Positions 7,362-60,565 of a stretch of DNA of 64,000 bases are shown here, in pieces. The DNA is from a virus: positions 23,864-87,863 of the IMG/VR virus record IMGVR_UViG_3300036766_000184; one strand, given 5' to 3'. Position 1 is the stretch's first letter. Each line of letters starts with the position of its first letter. The position numbers were made by a program, and so were the translations under genes. The notes beneath the pieces were generated by a model, which saw only the letters and a program-made list of their open reading frames with translations, had not been told where the DNA came from and searched no databases.

Positions 7362-8516
7362 GTGAGACGGATCGGACTGGTACTCGGCCTTATCATGGCG
7401 CTCGCGCTCGGTGTCGCGGGGACCGTGTCCGCAGGAAACTGCGGGACGTATTCCACGTACTCCACCGGGTCAAGTTTTGGCGCCGCCGACATCAACGGCA
7501 TCCAGATTCTCCTGGGCCAAACAAACATGACGCCACTCTGCGTCTCGCCATACGCGGCCACCGCTGGCCAGATGCAGACGACGACCGACCCCTATCCCGC
7601 AGGGGCCGTGAGCCTGCCCACGAGTCTTCAAGGCGAACTGACCGGCCTCCGCCACGTCATCAAGCAGCTCACGGGCTGGACCTACTGGTACACCCACACG
7701 GACGACTTCACCCGGAACGCGACGTGGAACACGCTCGGGCAGAGCTTCTGCGCGTTCTGCGTGAACATCACCGACACGGCGAGCCATCCGATTTCTAGGT
7801 TCATCGACCTCGTGATCGTGGGCACCGGCTCGAAGTTCTCGGTCGACAAGGCCGGGAATACGGTGATCGGCGGGACGTTGGCGCTCACAGGCGCGTTCAC
7901 GGGCACGATCCCGGTCACGGCATTCAACAGCGGCACCGGCGCGTCGGCCTCGACCGTCCTGCACGGCAACAGCACGTGGGGCGCGGTCAATCTCGCCTCC
8001 CAGGTCACCGGCAATCTTGGGGTCGCCAACCTCAACAGCGGCACCGGAGCATCCTCGGCGACCTTCTGGCGTGGTGACGGCACGTGGGGCGCGGCGGGCG
8101 CGGCGGTCGTCCAGATCAAAAGCGCGACCTATTCAACGGCGGGTACCGCGACTGGAACGACGCTGACCGATAGCGGCCTCTCGGTAACCATCACGCCGAC
8201 GAGTGCCAGCAATAGCGTGCGCATCACGGCGGTCCAGAACGGAGTCAGCGTCAACACGGCGGGCCAGTGGGGGCTCTTGAGGCTCCTGCGGGGCGCGGGC
8301 GTCATCGCGTCCACGCTGCAATACGGCGGCTCAATCGCGACCGCCTTCGGGTCGGTCACGGTTGTCATCGGCCCGTACTGTGATAGCCCGGCCACCACTG
8401 GGGCCACGACCTACAAGACCCAGTACGCGGGCAGCGCGGGCGGGGTCAGTATCTCTGTGCAGGACTCATCGTCGACATCGTTCATCGTCGCGGAAGAGGT
8501 GACCTCATGTTCGTAA
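7362..8516 (+). CDS. Tail fibre / receptor-binding protein with N-terminal signal peptide
   Basis: Fibre motifs GTGASASTVLHGNSTW and GTGASSATFWRGDGTW; C-terminal VVQ...GLSVTITPTSAS...DSPATTGATTYK domain; N-terminus MRRIGLVLGLIMALALGVAGTVSA (alternative start 7344). Confidence 0.8.
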   Translation: MRRIGLVLGLIMALALGVAGTVSAGNCGTYSTYSTGSSFGAADINGIQILLGQTNMTPLCVSPYAATAGQMQTTTDPYPAGAVSLPTSLQGELTGLRHVIKQLTGWTYWYTHTDDFTRNATWNTLGQSFCAFCVNITDTASHPISRFIDLVIVGTGSKFSVDKAGNTVIGGTLALTGAFTGTIPVTAFNSGTGASASTVLHGNSTWGAVNLASQVTGNLGVANLNSGTGASSATFWRGDGTWGAAGAAVVQIKSATYSTAGTATGTTLTDSGLSVTITPTSASNSVRITAVQNGVSVNTAGQWGLLRLLRGAGVIASTLQYGGSIATAFGSVTVVIGPYCDSPATTGATTYKTQYAGSAGGVSISVQDSSSTSFIVAEEVTSCS

Positions 8517-8845
8517 TACTCGCGCTCGCCGTGCTGTTCGTGACCACGCCCGCGTGGGCGCTCGATGCCAAGGCCATCGCAACGACGATCACGGGCCAGT
8601 GCCCGGACGCCGAGTTTTCCTATCAAGGTGACGGGTCCTCGCTCGGCGCGCACACGGCGGCGAACGGCGACAAGGCCACGGGGCTCACATGGATCGCGTC
8701 ATCGACCTGTCCCACGAGACCGACACTGGCTGAGATTCAGGCGTGGGCCGCCGCGAAGCCAGCCCCGGAGAAGATCGCGGATCGTATCGAGGCTGCCAAG
8801 ACGTTGAACGACCTGAAGGTCATCCTCAAGGAGCGCCTGAAGTGA
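8507..8845 (+). CDS. Putative tail-fibre chaperone/adjunct (XkdW-like) with signal peptide
   Basis: PDAEFSY..D...LTW......RPTLAEIQAW pattern seen after such fibres; N-terminus MFVILALAVLFVTTPAWA. Confidence 0.65.
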   Translation: MFVILALAVLFVTTPAWALDAKAIATTITGQCPDAEFSYQGDGSSLGAHTAANGDKATGLTWIASSTCPTRPTLAEIQAWAAAKPAPEKIADRIEAAKTLNDLKVILKERLK

Positions 8846-29576: not shown

Positions 29577-29775
29577 GGGGAACGCATGATCGAGCCCGAC
29601 CCGGAGTCCTGATGGACGCCATCTCGATGATCGGTCGGTGCGCGGCCCGGCAACTCGACGCCGAAGAGCACTCGCATTACTGCCCGCTGCATCACGGGAA
29701 CTGGCGTGGGCCGTGCGCTTGTACGACACCGGAGGCGCTGAGTCAGTCGTGCCGGTCGTGTCGTGAGCGAGTCGG

Positions 29776-30450
29776 ATGAGCACGCCGATCTTGATCTTGT
29801 TCGGGACATGGGGAAGGGCGCAGCAGTGGTACAAGCCGAACTCGCCGCTATGGACTGCGCTTGAAGCGCGCGGCTTTTCTCCAATCGTCTGCCCCTGGTC
29901 TGGCTTCTTGGGTGGCTACCACCACCCGATCATCGTTCCGCCCGCCTCCGACATTCGCGGCACGCTGGAGTTGTGGCGCTCAGAAGCGGAGAAGGCCGCG
30001 CTGTTCTGCAAGACCATCGGCCTGGAGCGGCCACATGTGATTTCACATTCTCATGCGATCAACCTCGTGGCCTTCGCCGCCGCGGGCACGGACTTCACGC
30101 CGCCCCAGCCATTCGCGACCGTGCTCAGTATTTCTGGTCCCATCCGTCAGGACATGGCGTTCACGCGCGCGCAGGCCAAGCTGAACATCCAGAAGTGGAT
30201 TCAGGTGACCGATCCCAAAGACGACCACACGATCCGTCAGGGCGAGTTCCTTGACGGCCACATCGGCTGGAACTACCACCTCCCCGAGGCCGACGTGAAC
30301 ATCGACGCGCCGGGCTGGGGGCATTCCCGGCTCACGGTGGAGATCGAGCCCGCGTGGACGGACCTCGGCCTGTGGCGGGAGCTGGTTCCTGAGACGCCAG
30401 CCCCTCCAGCCGTGGTACATTTCGACCCGCCCTATCTCGACCGCGCCTAG
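29776..30450 (+). CDS. Alpha/beta hydrolase (lipase/esterase-like)
   Basis: ILILFGTW, nucleophile elbow HVISHSHA, DPKDD, WGHS. Confidence 0.7.
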   Translation: MSTPILILFGTWGRAQQWYKPNSPLWTALEARGFSPIVCPWSGFLGGYHHPIIVPPASDIRGTLELWRSEAEKAALFCKTIGLERPHVISHSHAINLVAFAAAGTDFTPPQPFATVLSISGPIRQDMAFTRAQAKLNIQKWIQVTDPKDDHTIRQGEFLDGHIGWNYHLPEADVNIDAPGWGHSRLTVEIEPAWTDLGLWRELVPETPAPPAVVHFDPPYLDRA

Positions 30451-30471
30451 CCGTTCTACGAAAGCGAGGTG

Positions 30472-30537
30472 ATGCAGATGGATACCCCGAAGCCCGATCC
30501 GAAGCCGAAGCCCGAGCCGGAGCCTCAGTCTCCGTAG
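30472..30537 (+). CDS. 21-aa Pro-rich micropeptide (MQMDTPKPDPKPKPEPEPQSP)
   Basis: GAGGTG RBS directly upstream; below the ORF-track size cutoff. Confidence 0.4.
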   Translation: MQMDTPKPDPKPKPEPEPQSP

Positions 30538-30549
30538 CGGGGTATGGTC

Positions 30550-30704
30550 TGCGCGCTGAGCATCCCGGTGAGAACGGGAGCGGTCCTTCAACAGCCGAGG
30601 CGGCGCAACGGCATATGGCGCCGTGAAATCCGGGACCGTCTGGCAACCTCCTCGGCGACAGTTTCGCCGGGCACCGGGTTTGAATCCCGGCCAGCGCGCA
30701 ACCA
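30550..30704 (+). ncRNA. Enlarged tRNA-like RNA
   Basis: 9-bp terminal stem tgcgcgctg/cagcgcgca + ACCA; T-arm ccggg-TTTGAAT-cccgg; D-like arm tcccg/cggga; cggtcc/ggaccg arm; 8-bp variable-like arm. Confidence 0.55.
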
Positions 30705-30734
30705 TTGACAGGCCGCATGAGTTCACGGTAGTCT
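30705..30734 (+). promoter_or_regulatory. Promoter with (A)TGAGTTCAC operator
   Basis: TTGACA, 18 bp, TAGTCT; motif at 30717-30726. Confidence 0.65.
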
Positions 30735-30742
30735 GTCTCCCG

Positions 30743-31096
30743 ATGGCACGACAAGTCAGGATGTCCCGACCGCTTGCGTCGTACCCGCTCCTCGTCGTCT
30801 TGCGCGACCGCGCCGAGGCGTTCGCTCGATCCCCCGACGATGCGCCCTTGACCGTCCGTGAGATCAACGACCTGGAGGCGCGCGAGAAACACGCGCTCGT
30901 CGACCTGCGGAACCTGATCTCGCTCCACGGCCTTCGTCAGGACGTGATCGCCCGGGCCTGTAAGGTGGACCGCACGATGGTCAACAAGGTCTGGAACTCC
31001 GGCAAGGGCGGGCGCGAGCGCCAGTGGACCCGGAGTCAGCGGGTGGTGGCGGCGACGTATCGGGCGCTGGAGTCCGCGGGATGGATTCCGGCATGA
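30743..31096 (+). CDS. HTH (Cro/XRE-like) transcriptional regulator
   Basis: GLRQDVIARACKVDRTMVNKVWNSG helix-turn-helix. Confidence 0.65.
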   Translation: MARQVRMSRPLASYPLLVVLRDRAEAFARSPDDAPLTVREINDLEAREKHALVDLRNLISLHGLRQDVIARACKVDRTMVNKVWNSGKGGRERQWTRSQRVVAATYRALESAGWIPA

Positions 31097-31374
31097 CCTC
31101 GCGCATCCGAGCGCTGGTAGAGATGGAGACGACGATCAAGGATCGCTACCTCGGGCGCGCAGTCGAAGGGGTCATCGTGCCGCCCGTGAATCACTTCCGC
31201 GTGCTCATAGATCGCTCGATTGAGCAGGAGGAGCGCGGCGAAGATCCAGTGCTGTTGCTCCTGACCGCCATGGCGGTCACGACCGATCTTGTCAATGGGC
31301 TGGCGGCCGAAGTCGTGGACGCGCGTCGCGTAGCCGAAGCGGCGACTCTCATCGCTGAATCGTGCGTCCGATGA
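31093..31374 (+). CDS. Hypothetical protein
   Basis: ATGA-coupled ORF. Confidence 0.55.
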   Translation: MTSRIRALVEMETTIKDRYLGRAVEGVIVPPVNHFRVLIDRSIEQEERGEDPVLLLLTAMAVTTDLVNGLAAEVVDARRVAEAATLIAESCVR

Positions 31375-31513
31375 TCGGCCGACCGTACCACCCGACACCG
31401 CCCCCCGCCTCCGTGCCACGCGAAGTTGCCCGCGCGGGCAGTGCGGTATTCCTGCTCGGCCTTCTCGTGCTGATCGCAGTCGCGCTCGTCAGCTAGCCGC
31501 CCAGCCTTTCCGC

Positions 31514-31543
31514 TTGACAATCGGAGTGAGTTCACAGTACATT
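31514..31543 (+). promoter_or_regulatory. Promoter with GTGAGTTCAC operator
   Basis: TTGACA, 18 bp, TACATT; motif at 31526-31535. Confidence 0.75.
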
Positions 31544-31565
31544 TCCTCGTAGTAGGAGGAACGAC

Positions 31566-32675
31566 GTGCCCATTCATGGCCTATCGGACAAGCGGCGGTT
31601 GGTTCGCCTCGGAAAAATCAAGATGGGGGTCATGGTGCAGCCCGCGCAGGGCAAGCCCTACCCCCGCGCAACCGACTTCTTCGTGGTCCCCGACTCCGTA
31701 CAGAAGGTCTACGGCGAGAAACCGCGCGCGCTCGGGATCATGCTGCCATCAGACAGCCCCGACGAGGTCTTTCCGCAGGAACTGAAAGCCTACAAGGCTT
31801 CGGGTCTTTTCTGCGCCGGGGACAACCGCGTCGCGAAGCGCTGGCATGAAGGCAGGCTGGTCGAGCGCCCCTGCCCGTGCGAGATGTTGGACTCGGGAGA
31901 GTGTCAGCCGACCGCGACCTTGAACGTGATGCTCTACAGGGTCGCCGGACTCGGGGTCTGGCAGCTCACCGTGCGCCAGGAAGCGGCCATCATCGAGATC
32001 AACACGACCCTGGAGAAGTTCACGACCATGTTCGGCGGGCTCCGCGGCATCCCGTTCGTCCTCCGGTTGGAGCAGGTCCAGCGCCAGCGGTACGACGAGA
32101 AGACGAAGGCGATGGTCAAGGTCATGGTCTGGACACCAAAGATCGACACCGAGATGACCCTTGAGGAGATCTTCACGTCCCGCAAGGCCCTCGGCGCCGG
32201 CGTCGATCGTCTCATGCTACCCGCCATGGGCGAGATCGAGGAGGACGACCACCCAGTCACGACCTCCGAAGCCACTGAGAGCCCCCAGGGGGCCGTCGAA
32301 GACGCCACCCTGACCCAGATGGCACCCCCAGCCGAGATCGTGGCCCCTGCCGCCACCACGCCTGCGACAGACCTCTTCCCGGCCCCTGCCGCCAGCCAGC
32401 ACGACGACCCGGCCCCGCCGGCCGCTGCCCAGGGCAAGGTCGAGGGTGCCGGCCTGCTGATGGACGAGTGTTTCGAGCTGGCCCAGAAGCTCGACGTGGA
32501 TGCCGCGACCTACCGGGCCTATCTTCAGGCGATCCACGGGACGGTCGACCTGCCCCACGAGTCGGCCGCGACCGAGATCGAGCGGCTCCGGGACGCGATG
32601 AAGAACCCAGGTACGGCAGGCGCGGCCAAGGCGGCCATGAAGGCCGGGGCGAGGAAGATCGGTGGCGGACGATGA
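31566..32675 (+). CDS. Gp3-like recombination protein (recombination directionality factor-like family)
   Basis: RLGKIKMG...YPRATDFF, YGEKP..L.I.LP, LFCAGD, C.C....C, GLGVWQL, GIPFVLRL; AGGAGG RBS. Confidence 0.75.
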   Translation: MPIHGLSDKRRLVRLGKIKMGVMVQPAQGKPYPRATDFFVVPDSVQKVYGEKPRALGIMLPSDSPDEVFPQELKAYKASGLFCAGDNRVAKRWHEGRLVERPCPCEMLDSGECQPTATLNVMLYRVAGLGVWQLTVRQEAAIIEINTTLEKFTTMFGGLRGIPFVLRLEQVQRQRYDEKTKAMVKVMVWTPKIDTEMTLEEIFTSRKALGAGVDRLMLPAMGEIEEDDHPVTTSEATESPQGAVEDATLTQMAPPAEIVAPAATTPATDLFPAPAASQHDDPAPPAAAQGKVEGAGLLMDECFELAQKLDVDAATYRAYLQAIHGTVDLPHESAATEIERLRDAMKNPGTAGAAKAAMKAGARKIGGGR

Positions 32676-32883: not shown

Positions 32884-33204
32884 ATGAGGAAGCTGCGGGT
32901 ACTGAATCTCTATAGCGCGGCGTACGCGTCCGGCCACGAGCCCGAAGTGTATTCGGATCGCGTCGTGCTTCGGCTCTACGGCAACCCCTCCTCGTCGGGC
33001 TATCGACAAGTCGTGCGCGTGCATCTCGAGTGGGGCGCGCTGCCGTGGCTCATGCGAAAGCTGTGGGCGGCGTGGTGGCGGCACAAGGCGGATGTCCTTC
33101 GGAATCTGTCATGGATCGAGCGGGAGCTGGCCGGGGCCGGCGTCGAGAAACCGAAAGAGTTGACGACGTCGGACCGGGAGCGCGGGGAGGCGGTGGGGGC
33201 GTGA
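32884..33204 (+). CDS. Hypothetical protein
   Basis: GGAGGAG RBS; coupled ORF chain. Confidence 0.55.
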   Translation: MRKLRVLNLYSAAYASGHEPEVYSDRVVLRLYGNPSSSGYRQVVRVHLEWGALPWLMRKLWAAWWRHKADVLRNLSWIERELAGAGVEKPKELTTSDRERGEAVGA

Positions 33205-40905: not shown

Positions 40906-41361
40906 ATGAGCCGCCCCCTCCAGATCTCCCGTGCGGACGCCAAGCGACTCGGGATCACGGTTGCCCGGCGGGCACGGGTCGTCACAGAGGTTGTTGGGGT
41001 CGGGGCGCGCCACGCCTACGCCTGCGTACCGTACACGGCCGAGGCATGGTCGAAGAACAAGGCGTGGCGGCACCGGAAAGACGGGCGGGTCTACCTGAGC
41101 ACGCCGGCACGGGAAGCCCGCGAGACCCTGACCGCGCTCCTGCGACAGCCCGCATGGCCGCAGCGAAAAACGTGGCTCGTGGTCGACGTCTACCTTGGCG
41201 ATCATCGGAGCGACCCGATCAACACCGTCGATGGTTTGGCCGATAGCGTGAAAATTGCCATCGGGGTTGACGACAGATTTTTCGCAATCAAGCATCTCGA
41301 CTGGTTCATCGACCCCGAAAATCCACGGATCGAAGTTCAGGTCTACCAGGACGCATCGTGA
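40906..41361 (+). CDS. RusA-like endodeoxyribonuclease
   Basis: SKNKAWR...RSDPINTVDGLADSVKIAIGVDDRFF...DPENPRIEVQV. Confidence 0.7.
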   Translation: MSRPLQISRADAKRLGITVARRARVVTEVVGVGARHAYACVPYTAEAWSKNKAWRHRKDGRVYLSTPAREARETLTALLRQPAWPQRKTWLVVDVYLGDHRSDPINTVDGLADSVKIAIGVDDRFFAIKHLDWFIDPENPRIEVQVYQDAS

Positions 41362-41392
41362 GCTGCCCGCGCGGGCAACAGGAGTGGTGGGT

Positions 41393-42628
41393 ATGCAGGT
41401 GATCGCGGAGCACGGACACAAGCCGATCAAGGCGTGGATTGACGGCGTAGAGATCGAAGATGCGGCCCGCCAGCAGCTTCACAATCTGGCGTCGTTGCCG
41501 TTCATCTACAAACACGTTGCGGTCATGCCGGACTGCCACTTCGGGATCGGCGCGACCGTGGGCTCGGTGATCGCGACGCGCGGCGCGGTCGTGCCAGCGG
41601 CTTGCGGGGTCGACATCGGTTGCGGGATGCTGTGGGCGCCGCTCGACGTGCGCGAGGAAGAACTCGACGGCCAGCGTCAAGCGCTCCACGACGCCATCGA
41701 CGGGTCGATCCCGAACGGCCGCACGAACAACGGCCAGGCCGGTGACGATGGCGCGTGGGGCACGCCGCCCAACTACATCTCGACCGCGTGGGGCCCGATG
41801 ATGGACGACCTCGCGTCAATCCAGGCGCGGCATCCGAAGATCACGCCGCGCGTCGAGCCGGTGCATCAACTCGGGACGCTCGGGACCGGCAACCACTTTG
41901 TCGAGGTGGTGGTCGATGAGACCGGCCGTGCCGGGATCATGCTGCATTCGGGGAGTCGCGGCATCGGCAATCTCATCGGACGCTACTTCATCGAGCGCGC
42001 CAAGCGCGCCATGGAGCGGTACTTCATCACGTTGCCCGACGCGGACCTAGCCTACCTGCCCGAGCTCGACAGTGCCGGCCAGCCCGACAAGGATTTCGTG
42101 GACTACATGGACGCGGTGTGGTGGGCGCAAGAGTTCGCCGCCAAGAACCGATCGCTCATGCTGCGCGCCGCTCTGGCGGTGATGGGGAGCGTGCTCGGGC
42201 GCGAGGTCAGCGTCGGCGGGCCCGGCGCGGTCCAATGTCACCACAACTACATCGCCCGTGAGAACCACTACGGGGACAACGTACTCGTGACGCGCAAGGG
42301 GGCCGTGCGGGCTCGCGTCGGCGATCTCGGGATCATCCCCGGCGCGATGGGACGTCAGAGCTTCATCGTCCGCGGCAAGGGCAACCCGGAGAGCTTCATG
42401 TCGTGTAGCCACGGGGCCGGGCGCGCGATGAGCCGAACGCAAGCGCGCGCGAGGTTCACCGTCGAGCAGCATCAGGCCGACACGGAGGGCATCGCGTGCC
42501 GCAAGGACGCGAGCGTGCTGGACGAAACGCCACGAGCGTACAAGTCGATTGAAGCGGTCATGGCCGCTCAGTCTGATCTGGTGGAGATCGTCCACACCCT
42601 GCGCGCCGTCGTGTGCGTGAAGGGATGA
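41393..42628 (+). CDS. rtcB: RtcB RNA ligase (3'-P or 2',3'-cyclic P to 5'-OH)
   Basis: MPDCH, GVDIGCG, GTGNHF, HSGSRG, HHNY, RKGA, SCSHGAGR, DETPRAYK. Confidence 0.97.
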   Translation: MQVIAEHGHKPIKAWIDGVEIEDAARQQLHNLASLPFIYKHVAVMPDCHFGIGATVGSVIATRGAVVPAACGVDIGCGMLWAPLDVREEELDGQRQALHDAIDGSIPNGRTNNGQAGDDGAWGTPPNYISTAWGPMMDDLASIQARHPKITPRVEPVHQLGTLGTGNHFVEVVVDETGRAGIMLHSGSRGIGNLIGRYFIERAKRAMERYFITLPDADLAYLPELDSAGQPDKDFVDYMDAVWWAQEFAAKNRSLMLRAALAVMGSVLGREVSVGGPGAVQCHHNYIARENHYGDNVLVTRKGAVRARVGDLGIIPGAMGRQSFIVRGKGNPESFMSCSHGAGRAMSRTQARARFTVEQHQADTEGIACRKDASVLDETPRAYKSIEAVMAAQSDLVEIVHTLRAVVCVKG

Positions 42629-42834
42629 AAACCATCGCCTTCGTGGTCCTCCTGTACGAATCAGGCGGCGCCCTCTCGGACGTCGCCATCCGCCACAATC
42701 GCGCCTCCGCGAAAGGGATCGGAGAAACGTGGACCGGCCGCTCGGACTGGCGCAAACAAGCCGACAAGCGCACCGTCACCGTGTCGGGGAACGAGGGGCG
42801 AGTCGCGCACGTGTACGAAAGGGAAATCGCATGA
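42625..42834 (+). CDS. Small hypothetical protein between the two ligases
   Basis: ATGA overlaps with both neighbours. Confidence 0.55.
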   Translation: MKTIAFVVLLYESGGALSDVAIRHNRASAKGIGETWTGRSDWRKQADKRTVTVSGNEGRVAHVYEREIA

Positions 42835-43790
42835 GCGGCGAGTCTACGTCCTGGCATTCCTATCCGTCGAGCTTCGCGCTGGGTCATCGTGCGCTCGCCG
42901 ATCTCCTACTCGATCCGGTACTCGTAGAGGAGAAGGTAGACGGCAGCCAGTTTTCGTGGGGACTCTTCCCCCGCGAAGACGATCCGTTCATGTGGGAGGG
43001 GTTGCGGTGCCGATCGAAGGGCGCGCAACTCAACCTCCTCGCGCCGGAGAAAATGTTCGAGCGCGCGATCGACACCGTCAAGGCGATGCGTGGTCAGCTC
43101 CAGCCCGGCTGGACCTATCGCGCGGAATATATGGCGAAGCCTCATCACAACGCGCTCACCTACGATCGCGTACCCGCCCAGCACCTCATCCTTTTCGACA
43201 TCAACCCAGGGCACGAGGAATATCTGTCGTGGGACGACAAGGCCCGAGAGGCTGAGCGGCTCGGGCTGGAGGTCGTGCCGCGGCTCTTCTACGGGATACT
43301 CACCGACGTCGAGATGCTGCGAGAGATGCTGAGCCGGGTGTCGATCCTCGGGGGCCAAACGATCGAGGGTGTCGTCATCAAGAATCCGGCGCGGTTCGGA
43401 CTCGACAAGAAGATCCTGATCGGAAAGTACGTCTCGGAGGCGTTCAAGGAAGTTCACGCGGCCGAGTGGAAAGCCGCCAACCCGAAGAGCGGCGACATCA
43501 TCGAGATGCTGATCCGCCAGTACGCATCACCGGCGCGCTGGCAAAAGGGACTCCAACACCTCCGAGAGGCCGGACAGATCACAGATAGCCCGAAGGACAT
43601 CGGCCTCCTCATGCGCGAGATCCCCGAGGACATCGCCAAGGAAGCCGAGGACGAGATCAAGGCGCGCCTCTGGTCGTGGGCGTGGCCGAAGATCCGACGT
43701 GGCGTCGCCGCTGGCCTCCCGAACTGGTACAAAGACTCGATTCTGCTCCCGAAGCAATTTGAGGAAGCCGCGCCAGAGGAGACCCAATGA
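42831..43790 (+). CDS. ATP-dependent RNA ligase (Rnl2-like nucleotidyltransferase)
   Basis: Motif I EEKVDGSQ, RAEY, LFDI, VVPRLF, IEGVVIKN, GKYVSEAFKE. Confidence 0.85.
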   Translation: MSGESTSWHSYPSSFALGHRALADLLLDPVLVEEKVDGSQFSWGLFPREDDPFMWEGLRCRSKGAQLNLLAPEKMFERAIDTVKAMRGQLQPGWTYRAEYMAKPHHNALTYDRVPAQHLILFDINPGHEEYLSWDDKAREAERLGLEVVPRLFYGILTDVEMLREMLSRVSILGGQTIEGVVIKNPARFGLDKKILIGKYVSEAFKEVHAAEWKAANPKSGDIIEMLIRQYASPARWQKGLQHLREAGQITDSPKDIGLLMREIPEDIAKEAEDEIKARLWSWAWPKIRRGVAAGLPNWYKDSILLPKQFEEAAPEETQ

Positions 43791-60487: not shown

Positions 60488-60565
60488 GTTGACGTTCGGC
60501 TAGTCAGGTTAAGCCCCGAGACCGTGGCTCTCGGTACACCGGTTCAACTCCGGTACGTCAACCCA
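60488..60565 (+). tRNA. tRNA-His (GUG) with encoded G-1 and CCA
   Basis: Full cloverleaf: G-1:C73, acceptor ttgacgt/acgtcaa, D ggct/agcc, anticodon cgaga-ccGTGgc-tctcg, T accgg-ttcaact-ccggt. Confidence 0.9.

Follow-up and report, generated by a model that had tools for sequence, protein, structure and literature searches.

Oversized tRNA-like stable RNAs have been familiar in phages T4 and T5 for decades, and to our knowledge no Rfam family exists for them. RNA1 and RNA2 of phage T5 (AY543070, positions 30501-30644 and 32959-33083) are annotated as 'tRNA-like stable RNA with unknown functions', and the species 1 RNA of T4 is encoded by rnaC (AF158101, positions 70908-71046, 139 nt). These are the closest known RNAs to the putative RNA gene described here, which was found in a window of 64,000 nucleotides of viral DNA (the whole stretch that was analysed, to which all positions refer unless otherwise stated). 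The window RNA fits the same kind, namely phage RNAs of 100-170 nt whose oversized centre is framed by a closing helix and a T arm.

Both T5 RNAs share with the window RNA that they are phage-encoded, measure 125-144 nt and have an oversized centre framed by a closing helix and a T arm. RNA2 also shares the layout of the window RNA: in its fold a closing helix of 8 bp is followed by the spacer CG, a D-like stem of 5 bp, a long arm and finally the T arm. However, they show no sequence similarity to it, a BLAST search with the window RNA having matched none of 50,697 phage records, and the loops differ: RNA2 carries GAUGGGGA with UUCGAAU and RNA1 is of the leucine type, whereas the window RNA combines GUGAGAA with UUUGAAU. 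Moreover the T5 RNAs lie in a tRNA cluster, whereas the only tRNA that ARAGORN calls in the window, a tRNA-His at 60489, is 30 kb away. The T4 RNA, too, is a stable small RNA of a phage and has the same T stem (CCGGG-UUCGAAU-CCCGG near its 3' end), but its closing helix is weak, its fold contains no D-like hairpin, its loop is UUCGAAU and it is placed inside a tRNA cluster. The kinship with the T5 and T4 RNAs is defined by design and not by shown common descent.

Position and fold of the RNA

The tRNA-like elements noticed in a preliminary description of this DNA (a 9-bp acceptor, a D arm, a variable arm, a T loop reading TTTGAAT and an ACCA end) are all present where it had placed them (Table 1). 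It had also reported a stem cggtc/gaccg enclosing CTTCAA and an insert of about 40 nt; this stem (30581-30585 with 30634-30638) is part of the 8-bp stem of the MFE fold, and the insert forms two small hairpins. The competing 7-bp pairing that it mentioned does exist, between GCCGAGG (30594-30600) and CCTCGGC (30650-30656). In place of the anticodon and variable arms, the window RNA has about 95 nt of lineage-specific folded RNA. The MFE fold of the whole RNA has an energy of -77.6 kcal/mol (z = -2.68), and 3 of 200 shuffled sequences fold equally well; the fold energy alone is just moderately above chance, and the comparative evidence is stronger.

Table 1. Features of the RNA gene and their positions in the window
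Feature	Position	Strand	Description	Basis
RNA gene	30550-30704	+	155 nt	
Leader TGGT	30545-30548	+	pairs with ACCA (30701-30704), lengthening the closing helix	MFE fold
Closing (acceptor-like) helix, 5' strand TGCGCGCTG	30550-30558	+	9 bp with CAGCGCGCA	fold and comparison
D-like hairpin TCCCG/GTGAGAA/CGGGA	30563-30579	+	7-nt loop GTGAGAA at 30568-30574	
Long arm replacing the anticodon arm	30580-30639	+	8-bp stem, 30580-30587 with 30632-30639	MFE fold
CTTCAA in the long arm	30586-30591	+		
Small hairpins in the long arm	30594-30604 and 30608-30624	+		
Linker	30640-30650	+	11 nt, unpaired, between the long arm and the variable-arm-like hairpin; without counterpart in tRNAs	
Variable-arm-like hairpin	30651-30671	+	8 bp, 30651-30658 with 30664-30671 (CTCGGCGA/TCGCCGGG), 5-nt loop	
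T arm CCGGG/TTTGAAT/CCCGG	30674-30690	+		fold and comparison
Single unpaired C	30691	+	between the T stem and the closing helix	
Closing helix, 3' strand CAGCGCGCA	30692-30700	+	followed by A and CCA (30701-30704)	

The canonical tRNA features that are kept include the 5-bp T stem with its 7-nt loop and the closing helix ending in CAGCGCGCA-A-CCA, whereas the length of this helix (9 bp and not 7) and the C left unpaired at the junction depart from a tRNA. The closing helix is followed by a spacer that reads AGCA (or GC-A). If a 7/5 tRNA frame is imposed, the 5' strand of the helix runs from 30553 to 30559 and an A.C mismatch lies at the base; the calls that ARAGORN makes on shortened variants of the RNA begin at 30553. 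Since the helix is prolonged by the pairing of TGGT with ACCA, the 'CCA end' of the window RNA is paired in the fold of the primary transcript. By direct reading there is no U8 and no G18G19 (the D-like loop is without GG), and there is no 7-nt anticodon loop on a 5-bp stem, CTTCAA being part of an enclosed region of 44 nt.

ARAGORN did not call the RNA in its search of the window, nor did it find anything at default thresholds when introns were allowed, and neither its tmRNA option (-m) at a lowered threshold nor Rfam found a tmRNA. In the Rfam search nothing reached the gathering score, and no known family matched the window RNA on the + strand at E<=10; the single match to tRNA-Sec (RF01852) is on the minus strand and has 18.5 bits against a gathering score of 47. 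No second copy of the RNA was found in the 87.9-kb record. A search of sequencing runs for the stretch retrieved one DNA run, probably the source sample, and no RNA run. The reads of the DNA run over the stretch give one full-length contig with no variants and no joints.

Related RNAs in other lineages

Because both loop motifs (GTGAGAA and TTTGAAT) were fixed in the search patterns that retrieved the relatives, the conservation of the loops is circular and the helices alone are independent evidence. Among 76 distinct matches to the two motifs, seven have 7/7 closing-helix pairs at the expected place (the window RNA, W, and L018, L023, L051, L058, L103 and L089), whereas 0/76 reach seven pairs in a control with the partner strand shifted by 10-11 nt. 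In six of these seven the T stem is paired 5/5 and the D stem is paired as well. The exception, L089, was rejected as a chance match (seven closing pairs including two G.U, T stem 4/5, no D stem), and L042/L067 and L074/L099 were not accepted as family members either. A further motif scan, after the 76-match set, found L106, L110 and L111, and scans with other spacings added nothing; the 80 metagenome stretches from the motif scan are mostly ordinary tRNAs preceded by a chance GTGAGAA.

The family descriptor consists of a closing helix of at least 7 bp, a 2-4-nt spacer, a hairpin with a GUGAGAA loop, a variable centre of 55-120 nt and a 5-bp T arm with UUUGAAU. Five lineages fit it, namely W, L018, L023, L051/L058/L103 and L106/L110/L111. 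The four besides that of the window come from phages or metagenomes; their closing helices have 7/7 pairs and unrelated sequences, and their centres of 55-120 nt are lineage-specific.

With regard to covariation, the closing helix, the D-like hairpin and the T arm recur with compensatory changes in these four other lineages. In the alignment of L018, L023, L051, L058 and L103, 60/60 cells are paired and 7/12 pairs change on both sides; this pair count was reached by none of 500 shuffles, and slid controls were 35-53% paired. The window RNA and the L106 group, which MAFFT sets one column out of register, are left out of this count and were compared by means of the scripted descriptor. The closing-helix sequences are unrelated across the five lineages (CGCGCTG, AGCACAG, TCGGTAG, GCGGCGG and TCGCCTA) and the D stems co-vary (TCCCG/CGGGA, GCGTT/AACGC, GTGTG/CACAC and GGGT/ACCC). 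Because its frame is shared with co-varying helices in four other lineages, the window RNA is, as judged from sequence comparison, a real RNA gene. The preliminary description had considered a tRNA mimic, and this idea is supported: the upper half recurs with compensatory changes, and every tRNA or tmRNA model applied fails to recognise the molecule.

The lineages differ in how well the RNA is kept. In L051/L058/L103 it is 96.5-99.3% identical versus 71-82% for the flanks, and a hairpin of the cargo shows one double change from U-A to C-G. In L111 two changes break closing-helix pairs, and the RNA is no better kept than its flanks (97% versus 97%). CCA is encoded at the expected place in three of the five lineages (W, L018 and the L106 group). 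The central domains of the relatives are unrelated and have neither an anticodon arm nor an anticodon loop, and the long-arm domain of the window RNA is specific to its lineage, having no counterpart in the other four. The L018 RNA is part of a tRNA array, and a further small RNA comes after it. One 11-mer, CCTTCAACAGC, occurs both in the central domain of the window RNA and in the sequence that flanks the L018 RNA on its 5' side.

The window RNA is a singleton, with no close relative found, and its central domain, including CTTCAA, is therefore without comparative support. BLAST queries with a 6-kb stretch and with four family RNAs found no match among GenBank phages. Searches of viral contigs with the upstream ORF, with the Gp3-like protein encoded downstream and with an 8-protein alignment of the upstream ORF revealed no relative; in a large protein collection the upstream ORF has seven homologues besides itself. 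A scan of 185,579 species genomes for the D or T arm yielded three stretches, of which one is a family member (on a MAG contig) and two are due to chance, and no host tRNA with either arm was found among these genomes.

The favoured reading and its alternatives

Our best guess is that this RNA is a non-decoding tRNA mimic which is excised and stabilised by tRNA-processing enzymes. We give about an even chance to the reading, drawn from sequence, that the gene encodes a non-decoding tRNA-shaped RNA which is processed and acts in trans. As the codon-reading arm is replaced by about 95 unrelated nt, the RNA is most probably non-decoding. What it retains of a tRNA is the upper half, that is, a closing helix adjoining a 5-bp T arm (UUUGAAU) beside a D-like hairpin (GUGAGAA), and the GUGAGAA loop would dock on the UUUGAAU loop to form the tRNA elbow, with an A:U pair in place of the usual G19:C56. 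The RNA would be co-transcribed with upstream genes; no promoter-like site was found upstream of it in the scanned region (29700-31700), the sole match being downstream at 31514. It could then be excised by the enzymes of tRNA maturation, RNase P generating the 5' end and trimming or CCA repair the 3' end, and the product would be a stable small RNA. RNase P-type processing and a free CCA are less certain for the window RNA than for its relatives because its CCA is paired and its helix is longer (9 bp, or 10 positions in the tRNA frame, and 4 leader-trailer pairs, versus 7 bp in the other lineages).

The released RNA may act in trans by offering a tRNA-like surface, together with its own cargo domain, to a tRNA-binding host factor, and its possible roles are those of a decoy, a sponge or a regulator. 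A host rather than a phage partner is suggested by the fact that no protein encoded within 6 kb of the RNA is common between lineages. Antisense targets inside the phage genome did not exceed chance level, the best being 13-mers at E 0.16. A decoy for a host tRNA-cutting defence (for anticodon nucleases, in the words of the preliminary description) is speculative, and it is the most attractive specific role since the phage carries RtcB (41255-42628, 10.5 kb from the RNA), an Rnl-type ligase and a 2H phosphoesterase domain.

The lack of a promoter-like site upstream in the scanned region would also be expected of a cis-acting processing or stability element, in which the tRNA-like fold recruits RNase P or RNase Z within a polycistronic transcript, separating messages or protecting ends, and the released RNA is functionless. 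The RNA lies between two same-strand genes with TTGACA directly after it, and it keeps the tRNA upper half, which is the part that RNase P recognises. However, a cleavage signal needs neither a large, folded cargo nor the strong conservation, with a compensatory change, that the cargo shows in the L051 lineage, and the placement of the L018 RNA in a tRNA array, with a small RNA after it, is that of a gene product rather than of punctuation. We therefore consider a cis element unlikely.

The singleton status of the window copy, the two helix-breaking changes in L111 and the Gp3-like recombination directionality factor encoded 0.9 kb downstream of the RNA can be taken to indicate a now functionless relic, either a tRNA gene in decay or an att-site remnant, the latter having been raised in the preliminary description. 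However, an att remnant would retain just the 3' part of a tRNA, whereas here neither the closing helix nor the D stem has lost a strand, and both helices co-vary across five lineages. In addition, the L051-lineage RNA is far better kept than its flanks, and none of the species genomes scanned has a host tRNA with this D or T arm. Because both helix halves co-vary an att remnant is unlikely, and we give very little weight to the explanation as a whole.

It is even less probable that the RNA is charged and works outside the ribosome's normal decoding path, donating an amino acid or acting as a rescuer in the manner of a miniature tmRNA. The tRNA-like domain of tmRNA has the architecture seen here, combining the upper half of a tRNA with a substitute for the anticodon arm, and CCA is encoded in three of the five lineages. 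However, the tmRNA search with ARAGORN and Rfam found nothing, there is no G3:U70, and all frames of L023 and L106 contain stops, which leaves no tag reading frame. Nor is there a common synthetase identity, since each lineage has different bases in the closing helix and at the discriminator position.

An intron-bearing tRNA with the anticodon UCA (tRNA-Sec or a UGA suppressor), from whose anticodon loop about 40 nt would be excised and whose halves would be joined by the phage RtcB, was also proposed in the preliminary description. CTTCAA agrees with the 5' part of the tRNA-Sec anticodon loop (E. coli sequence), RtcB is encoded in the window, and the window RNA resembles bacterial tRNA-Sec (RF01852) in its long variable-arm-like hairpin, its closing helix of more than 7 bp and the CUUCAA in the place of the anticodon. 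Removal of the insert was expected to give a UCA loop, and indeed excision of 30592-30632 leaves, by direct reading, the 7-nt loop CTTCAAG on a 5-bp stem, but the excised molecule (30592-30632 or -33, or 30593-30632 removed) is rejected by ARAGORN. A call of tRNA-SeC(tca) was obtained on 103 of 968 in-silico deletion variants, but solely from ad hoc deletions, which mostly remove the GGGACCG strand, and two such variants that were drawn out lack this strand and have weak substitute stems.

Moreover, no bulge-helix-bulge can be drawn by eye, the 4-bp UUCA/UGAA helix being flanked by a 5-nt bulge with no adjoining inner helix. Even after excision there remain a 34-nt variable region with the 11-nt linker, an acceptor/T stack of 9+5 bp, no U8 and no G18G19. 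The stack of the window RNA, with its bulged C, differs from the 8+5 of tRNA-Sec (13-bp acceptor and T), as do the approximately 40 extra nt in the loop with the linker after them. The D hairpin of tRNA-Sec has 6 bp and a 4-nt loop, unlike the D-like hairpin of the window RNA with 5 bp and a 7-nt loop. To this must be added the failure of the Rfam tRNA-Sec model on the + strand (E<=10) and of ARAGORN with introns at default thresholds. The four related lineages have no anticodon arm whatsoever, and RtcB is found in 0/3 of the other records searched (L018, L103 and L003, two of them incomplete or a MAG). Finally, 20 of the 27 long ORFs end in TGA, and a UGA reader would therefore be harmful. 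Such a tRNA is thus highly improbable, and RNA genes of this type should not be called intron-bearing or selenocysteine tRNAs.

A small protein gene has a negligible likelihood: a 54-codon ORF (30544-30708), open from ATG 30544 to TGA 30708, coincides with the stretch, but such open frames are common at 65% G+C (13 kb contains 112 ORFs of 50 aa or more), the RNAs of L023, L051, L103 and L106 have stops in all same-strand frames (those of L023 and L106 in all six frames), and the conserved features are base pairs and not codons.

Place among known tRNA-like RNAs

The non-decoding tRNA-shaped RNA that we favour would be one of a subgroup spread over unrelated phages, in which the helices co-vary while the central domain is replaced wholesale; this supports the view of the tRNA frame as a carrier and of the centre as its cargo. 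Such genes are missed by ARAGORN and Rfam in annotation. A literature search found no earlier description of this subgroup, older T4 and T5 papers being outside its reach.

Oversized tRNA genes with 'enigmatic introns' have been described for Lak megaphages (Devoto et al. 2019, PMC6784885) and, like the window RNA, they are left unclassified by bacterial tRNA finders. The authors read the additional sequences as inserts, and type and anticodon can be assigned with eukaryote settings, whereas the excision proposed for the window RNA restores no tRNA. Allo-tRNAs, as defined by Mukai et al. (2017, PMC5389517), have a 12-bp acceptor branch split 8/4 or 9/3, whereas the window RNA has 9 bp and 5 bp with a bulged C. 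YrlA and the bacterial Y RNA-like RNAs (RF02553) are RtcB-linked tRNA mimics with a T and a D arm and no decoding, and in this they are like the window RNA; no Rfam match to RF02553 occurs in the window. Moreover the ends of YrlA RNA lie in its Ro-binding stem and not in an acceptor-like helix.

Ponchon and Dardel reportedly engineered a 'tRNA scaffold' for recombinant RNAs in E. coli which gives processing and stability. The scaffold is man-made, and its design is identical to that of the window RNA, the upper half being kept and the anticodon arm exchanged for a cargo; this resemblance is an analogy for the mechanism and not evidence. A tentative and rather unlikely extension of our proposal would be a family of natural 'tRNA-scaffolded' RNAs, in which the elbow and acceptor helix secure processing and stability and the swappable cargo is an anti-defence module, here an imitation of a CUUCAA anticodon arm that occupies or misdirects a host tRNA-cutting immune nuclease alongside RtcB and Rnl. 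Should the cargo turn out to be a regulator or an anti-defence decoy, such RNAs would constitute a new class of phage counter-measure and the natural counterpart of the engineered scaffold. Among the long-known phage tRNA-like RNAs, the window RNA appears to belong to a rare, undescribed subgroup with its own conserved loop pair.

Structure and surroundings of the tRNA-shaped RNA

The cloverleaf-like fold of the preliminary description was reproduced at 30550-30704 (+), with all arms present in the sequence and in the computed fold, and the competing pairing GCCGAGG/CCTCGGC also exists. In the fold a single unpaired C separates the T stem from the closing helix, which extends outward through pairing of TGGT with ACCA. 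Of 200 shuffled sequences, 197 folded less well (z -2.68), a single-sequence statistic which is suggestive of a real structure but not decisive.

Elements of the tRNA-shaped RNA and the ligase genes downstream of it
Feature	Position in window	Strand	Basis
Closing helix, 9 bp, TGCGCGCTG / CAGCGCGCA, then A-CCA	30550-30704	+	sequence and fold
D-like hairpin TCCCG-GTGAGAA-CGGGA	within 30550-30704	+	fold
8-bp stem around CTTCAA and about 40 more bases forming two small hairpins	within 30550-30704	+	fold
Unpaired linker, 11 nt	within 30550-30704	+	fold
8-bp hairpin where a long variable arm would sit	within 30550-30704	+	fold
T arm CCGGG-TTTGAAT-CCCGG	within 30550-30704	+	fold
RtcB (PF01139, E 1.7e-112) and Rnl-type RNA ligase (PF09414)	41255-43790	+	domain matches

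Searches with Rfam and with ARAGORN recognised no known family or tRNA at this place. Rfam gave no match in the whole window at gathering scores, nor on the + strand of the RNA region at E<=10. The only ARAGORN call in the window was a tRNA-His 30 kb away; with introns allowed there was no call at the RNA at default thresholds, and lowered thresholds produced only poor models contradicting one another. No tmRNA was found in the RNA by the same program.

The window forms the final 64 kb of a virus record in IMG/VR (87.9 kb in all, sediment metagenome) and has a G+C content of about 65%. All the genes around the RNA are on the + strand. Upstream there is a 4873-aa polyvalent protein with ART, 2H-phosphoesterase, RadC/JAB and LPD38 domains, followed by several small ORFs without family; the closest upstream ORF encodes a 224-aa protein whose homologues (7 found) have an alpha/beta-hydrolase domain. 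A Pro/Lys/Glu-rich mini-ORF of 19 codons with an upstream GAGG (30478-30537, +) stops 13 nt before the RNA. Downstream are a familyless ORF, a Gp3-like recombination directionality factor and, 10.5-13 kb from the RNA, the RtcB and Rnl-type ligase genes, which are 100 bases apart (42629-42728), with TnpB further on. Judged from their domains, the two ligases and the 2H phosphoesterase domain of the polyvalent protein make up a predicted RNA-repair set. Upstream of the RNA no promoter-like site was detected in a scan covering 29700-31700; the single match (31514) is downstream and ahead of the Gp3-like gene. A perfect TTGACA right after the CCA, with TAGTCT 18 nt on (30706-30741, +) and before an ATG at 30743, was not counted because the second hexamer is weak. 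No close phage relatives were found with the upstream ORF and the Gp3-like protein against viral contigs, or by 6-kb BLAST against GenBank phages.

Related RNAs in other loci

The 17-base T arm retrieved 18 stretches from IMG/VR, most of them with ordinary tRNAs and two with oversized tRNA-shaped units (loci L018 and L003). The L018 RNA directly follows a tRNA-Met/Gly/Thr array, and just past its closing helix has a hairpin with a GUGAGA(A) loop, which was found without selection for that motif. Scans requiring both loop motifs, at various spacings, gave L106, L110 and L111 in IMG/VR; L023, L051 and L058 were among the matches listed for metagenomes (at least 80 stretches), and 185,579 species genomes yielded three stretches, one of which is a member (L103). 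This sole species-genome member lies on a short MAG contig, and the family is regarded as a phage RNA and not a host gene. In total there are nine loci in five lineages, L106, L110 and L111 forming one of them, and different lineages have no protein in common within 6 kb of the RNA.

In a scripted test the strand 5' of the hairpin was compared with the strand 3' of the T arm in 76 distinct motif matches. All seven closing pairs were present in 7/76, and in 0/76 when the partner was displaced. In six of these the T stem is complete and the D stem paired as well; the seventh, L089, with a 4/5 T stem and no D stem, was rejected. The closing helices are fully paired and unrelated in sequence across the five lineages (CGCGCTG, AGCACAG, TCGGTAG, GCGGCGG and TCGCCTA), and the D stems co-vary across lineages. 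In the five sequences kept in register by MAFFT (L018, L023, L051, L058 and L103), to which the pair count was restricted, 60/60 cells are paired and 7 of 12 pairs show two-sided change, while 0/500 shuffles match this and slid partners are 35-53% paired. The helices are the independent evidence here, and the conserved loops are not, because both were fixed by the search patterns.

The centre (55-120 nt) is unrelated among lineages and folds in its own way in each; that of the window RNA has no counterpart in the other four lineages, the comparative support being confined to the frame. Among L051, L058 and L103, which form one lineage, the RNA shows 96.5-99.3% identity against 71-82% in its flanks, and one U-A to C-G double change falls in a hairpin of the centre. 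In L111 two changes disrupt closing pairs and the RNA is no more conserved than its flanks. Three of the five lineages encode CCA where a tRNA would have it. The L023 and L106 RNAs have stops in all six frames, and therefore the family is not protein-coding. Compared with its relatives, the window RNA has a 9-bp closing helix (in the tRNA frame 10 positions, the basal one an A.C mismatch), one extra spacer base and a CCA paired with the leader in the fold. That it is a real RNA gene is very probable.

Other features were observed in the retrieved loci. The L003 RNA (1368-1484, +) measures about 117 nt and combines a leucine-type D arm (GUGGCGGAAUCGAUAGACGC) with a T arm identical to that of the window RNA; it has no recognisable anticodon arm and is not called by ARAGORN. 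L023, whose family member is at 8448-8609, carries on the same contig a second oversized tRNA-shaped unit of 123 nt (2303-2425, +). The closing helix of this unit is GGGGATG/CATCTCC and its T loop reads TTCGACT, and a tRNA-Thr is found about 300 nt away. In L018 an abiF RNA motif match (RF03085; 12773-12809, -; 48.4 bits, gathering score 37) follows the tRNA-shaped RNA after 13 nt, at the end of the tRNA array. The match might represent a defence-system RNA carried by the phage, and this single case is consistent with a cluster of small anti-defence RNAs. The 11-mer CCTTCAACAGC of the window RNA's central domain (30585-30595) is found again at L018:12985-12995 (-), where it runs from the 5' flank into the closing helix; its recurrence may be chance or may mark a recombination or processing signal. 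A pair of class-II-like tRNA units recurs in one metagenome set (L025, L027, L031, L038, L041, L044, L048 and at least about 15 loci more); at the place of the anticodon loop, the first unit of the pair carries a hypervariable loop of 10-15 nt, for example ttcaaacccg or ttaaaatctg.

Possible tRNA mimicry and decoding

We give an even chance to the full reading of the window RNA as a non-decoding tRNA mimic that is processed like a tRNA. RNase P, the CCA enzyme and the enzymes that trim 3' ends all recognise the upper half of a tRNA. In the mimic this half would be a frame securing excision and stabilisation of the RNA and bearing a lineage-specific cargo. The elbow contact may be compensated by A:U in place of G19:C56, the D-like loop being without GG and the T loop having U instead of C56; the leucine-type frame of L003 has the same pair of changes.

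It is highly improbable that the RNA is an intron-bearing tRNA of the tRNA-Sec type with a UCA anticodon, excised and rejoined through RtcB. Excision of 30592-30632 arithmetically yields CTTCAAG on a 5-bp stem, and when 968 single-interval deletions were passed to ARAGORN by script at default thresholds, 145 were called as tRNAs, 103 of them SeC(tca). However, the latter deletions mostly also lose the GGGACCG strand, and the two examples drawn depend on weak substitute stems. The excision originally put forward gave no call, because the spliced form would retain a 34-nt variable region including the 11-nt linker, and a 9+5 stack, and would also be without U8 and G18G19. In addition, no bulge-helix-bulge could be drawn, the relatives have no anticodon arm, and RtcB was found in 0/3 other records searched (those of L018, L103 and L003, two of them incomplete or a MAG); maturation by RtcB was thus not borne out. 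TGA ends 20 of the 27 long ORFs, so a UGA reader would harm the phage.

For the non-decoding mimic, one speculation is that the cargo could act as a decoy against a host defence that cuts tRNAs, which is attractive because this phage devotes genes to RNA repair (RtcB, Rnl, 2H domain). The swapping of centres within the subgroup makes the idea of carrier and cargo testable.

Comparison with known phage RNAs

No sequence similarity of the window RNA to T5 RNA1 or RNA2 or to T4 species 1 RNA was found by BLAST in 50,697 phage records. T5 RNA2 folds in the same layout; in the T5 record, RNA1 and RNA2 both carry the annotation 'tRNA-like stable RNA with unknown functions'. T4 species 1 RNA has a T stem identical to that of the window RNA, but its loop is UUCGAAU. 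Oversized tRNAs of Lak phages were described as intron-bearing (Devoto et al. 2019, PMC6784885). The 10,006 candidate viral RNAs of Fremin and Bhatt 2023 (PMC10690425) include 'tRNA-like' ones, and the word anticodon is absent from the main text of that paper. Our literature search found no description of the GUGAGAA/UUUGAAU subgroup. Oversized tRNA-shaped phage RNAs are a long-known class, within which this subgroup is new.
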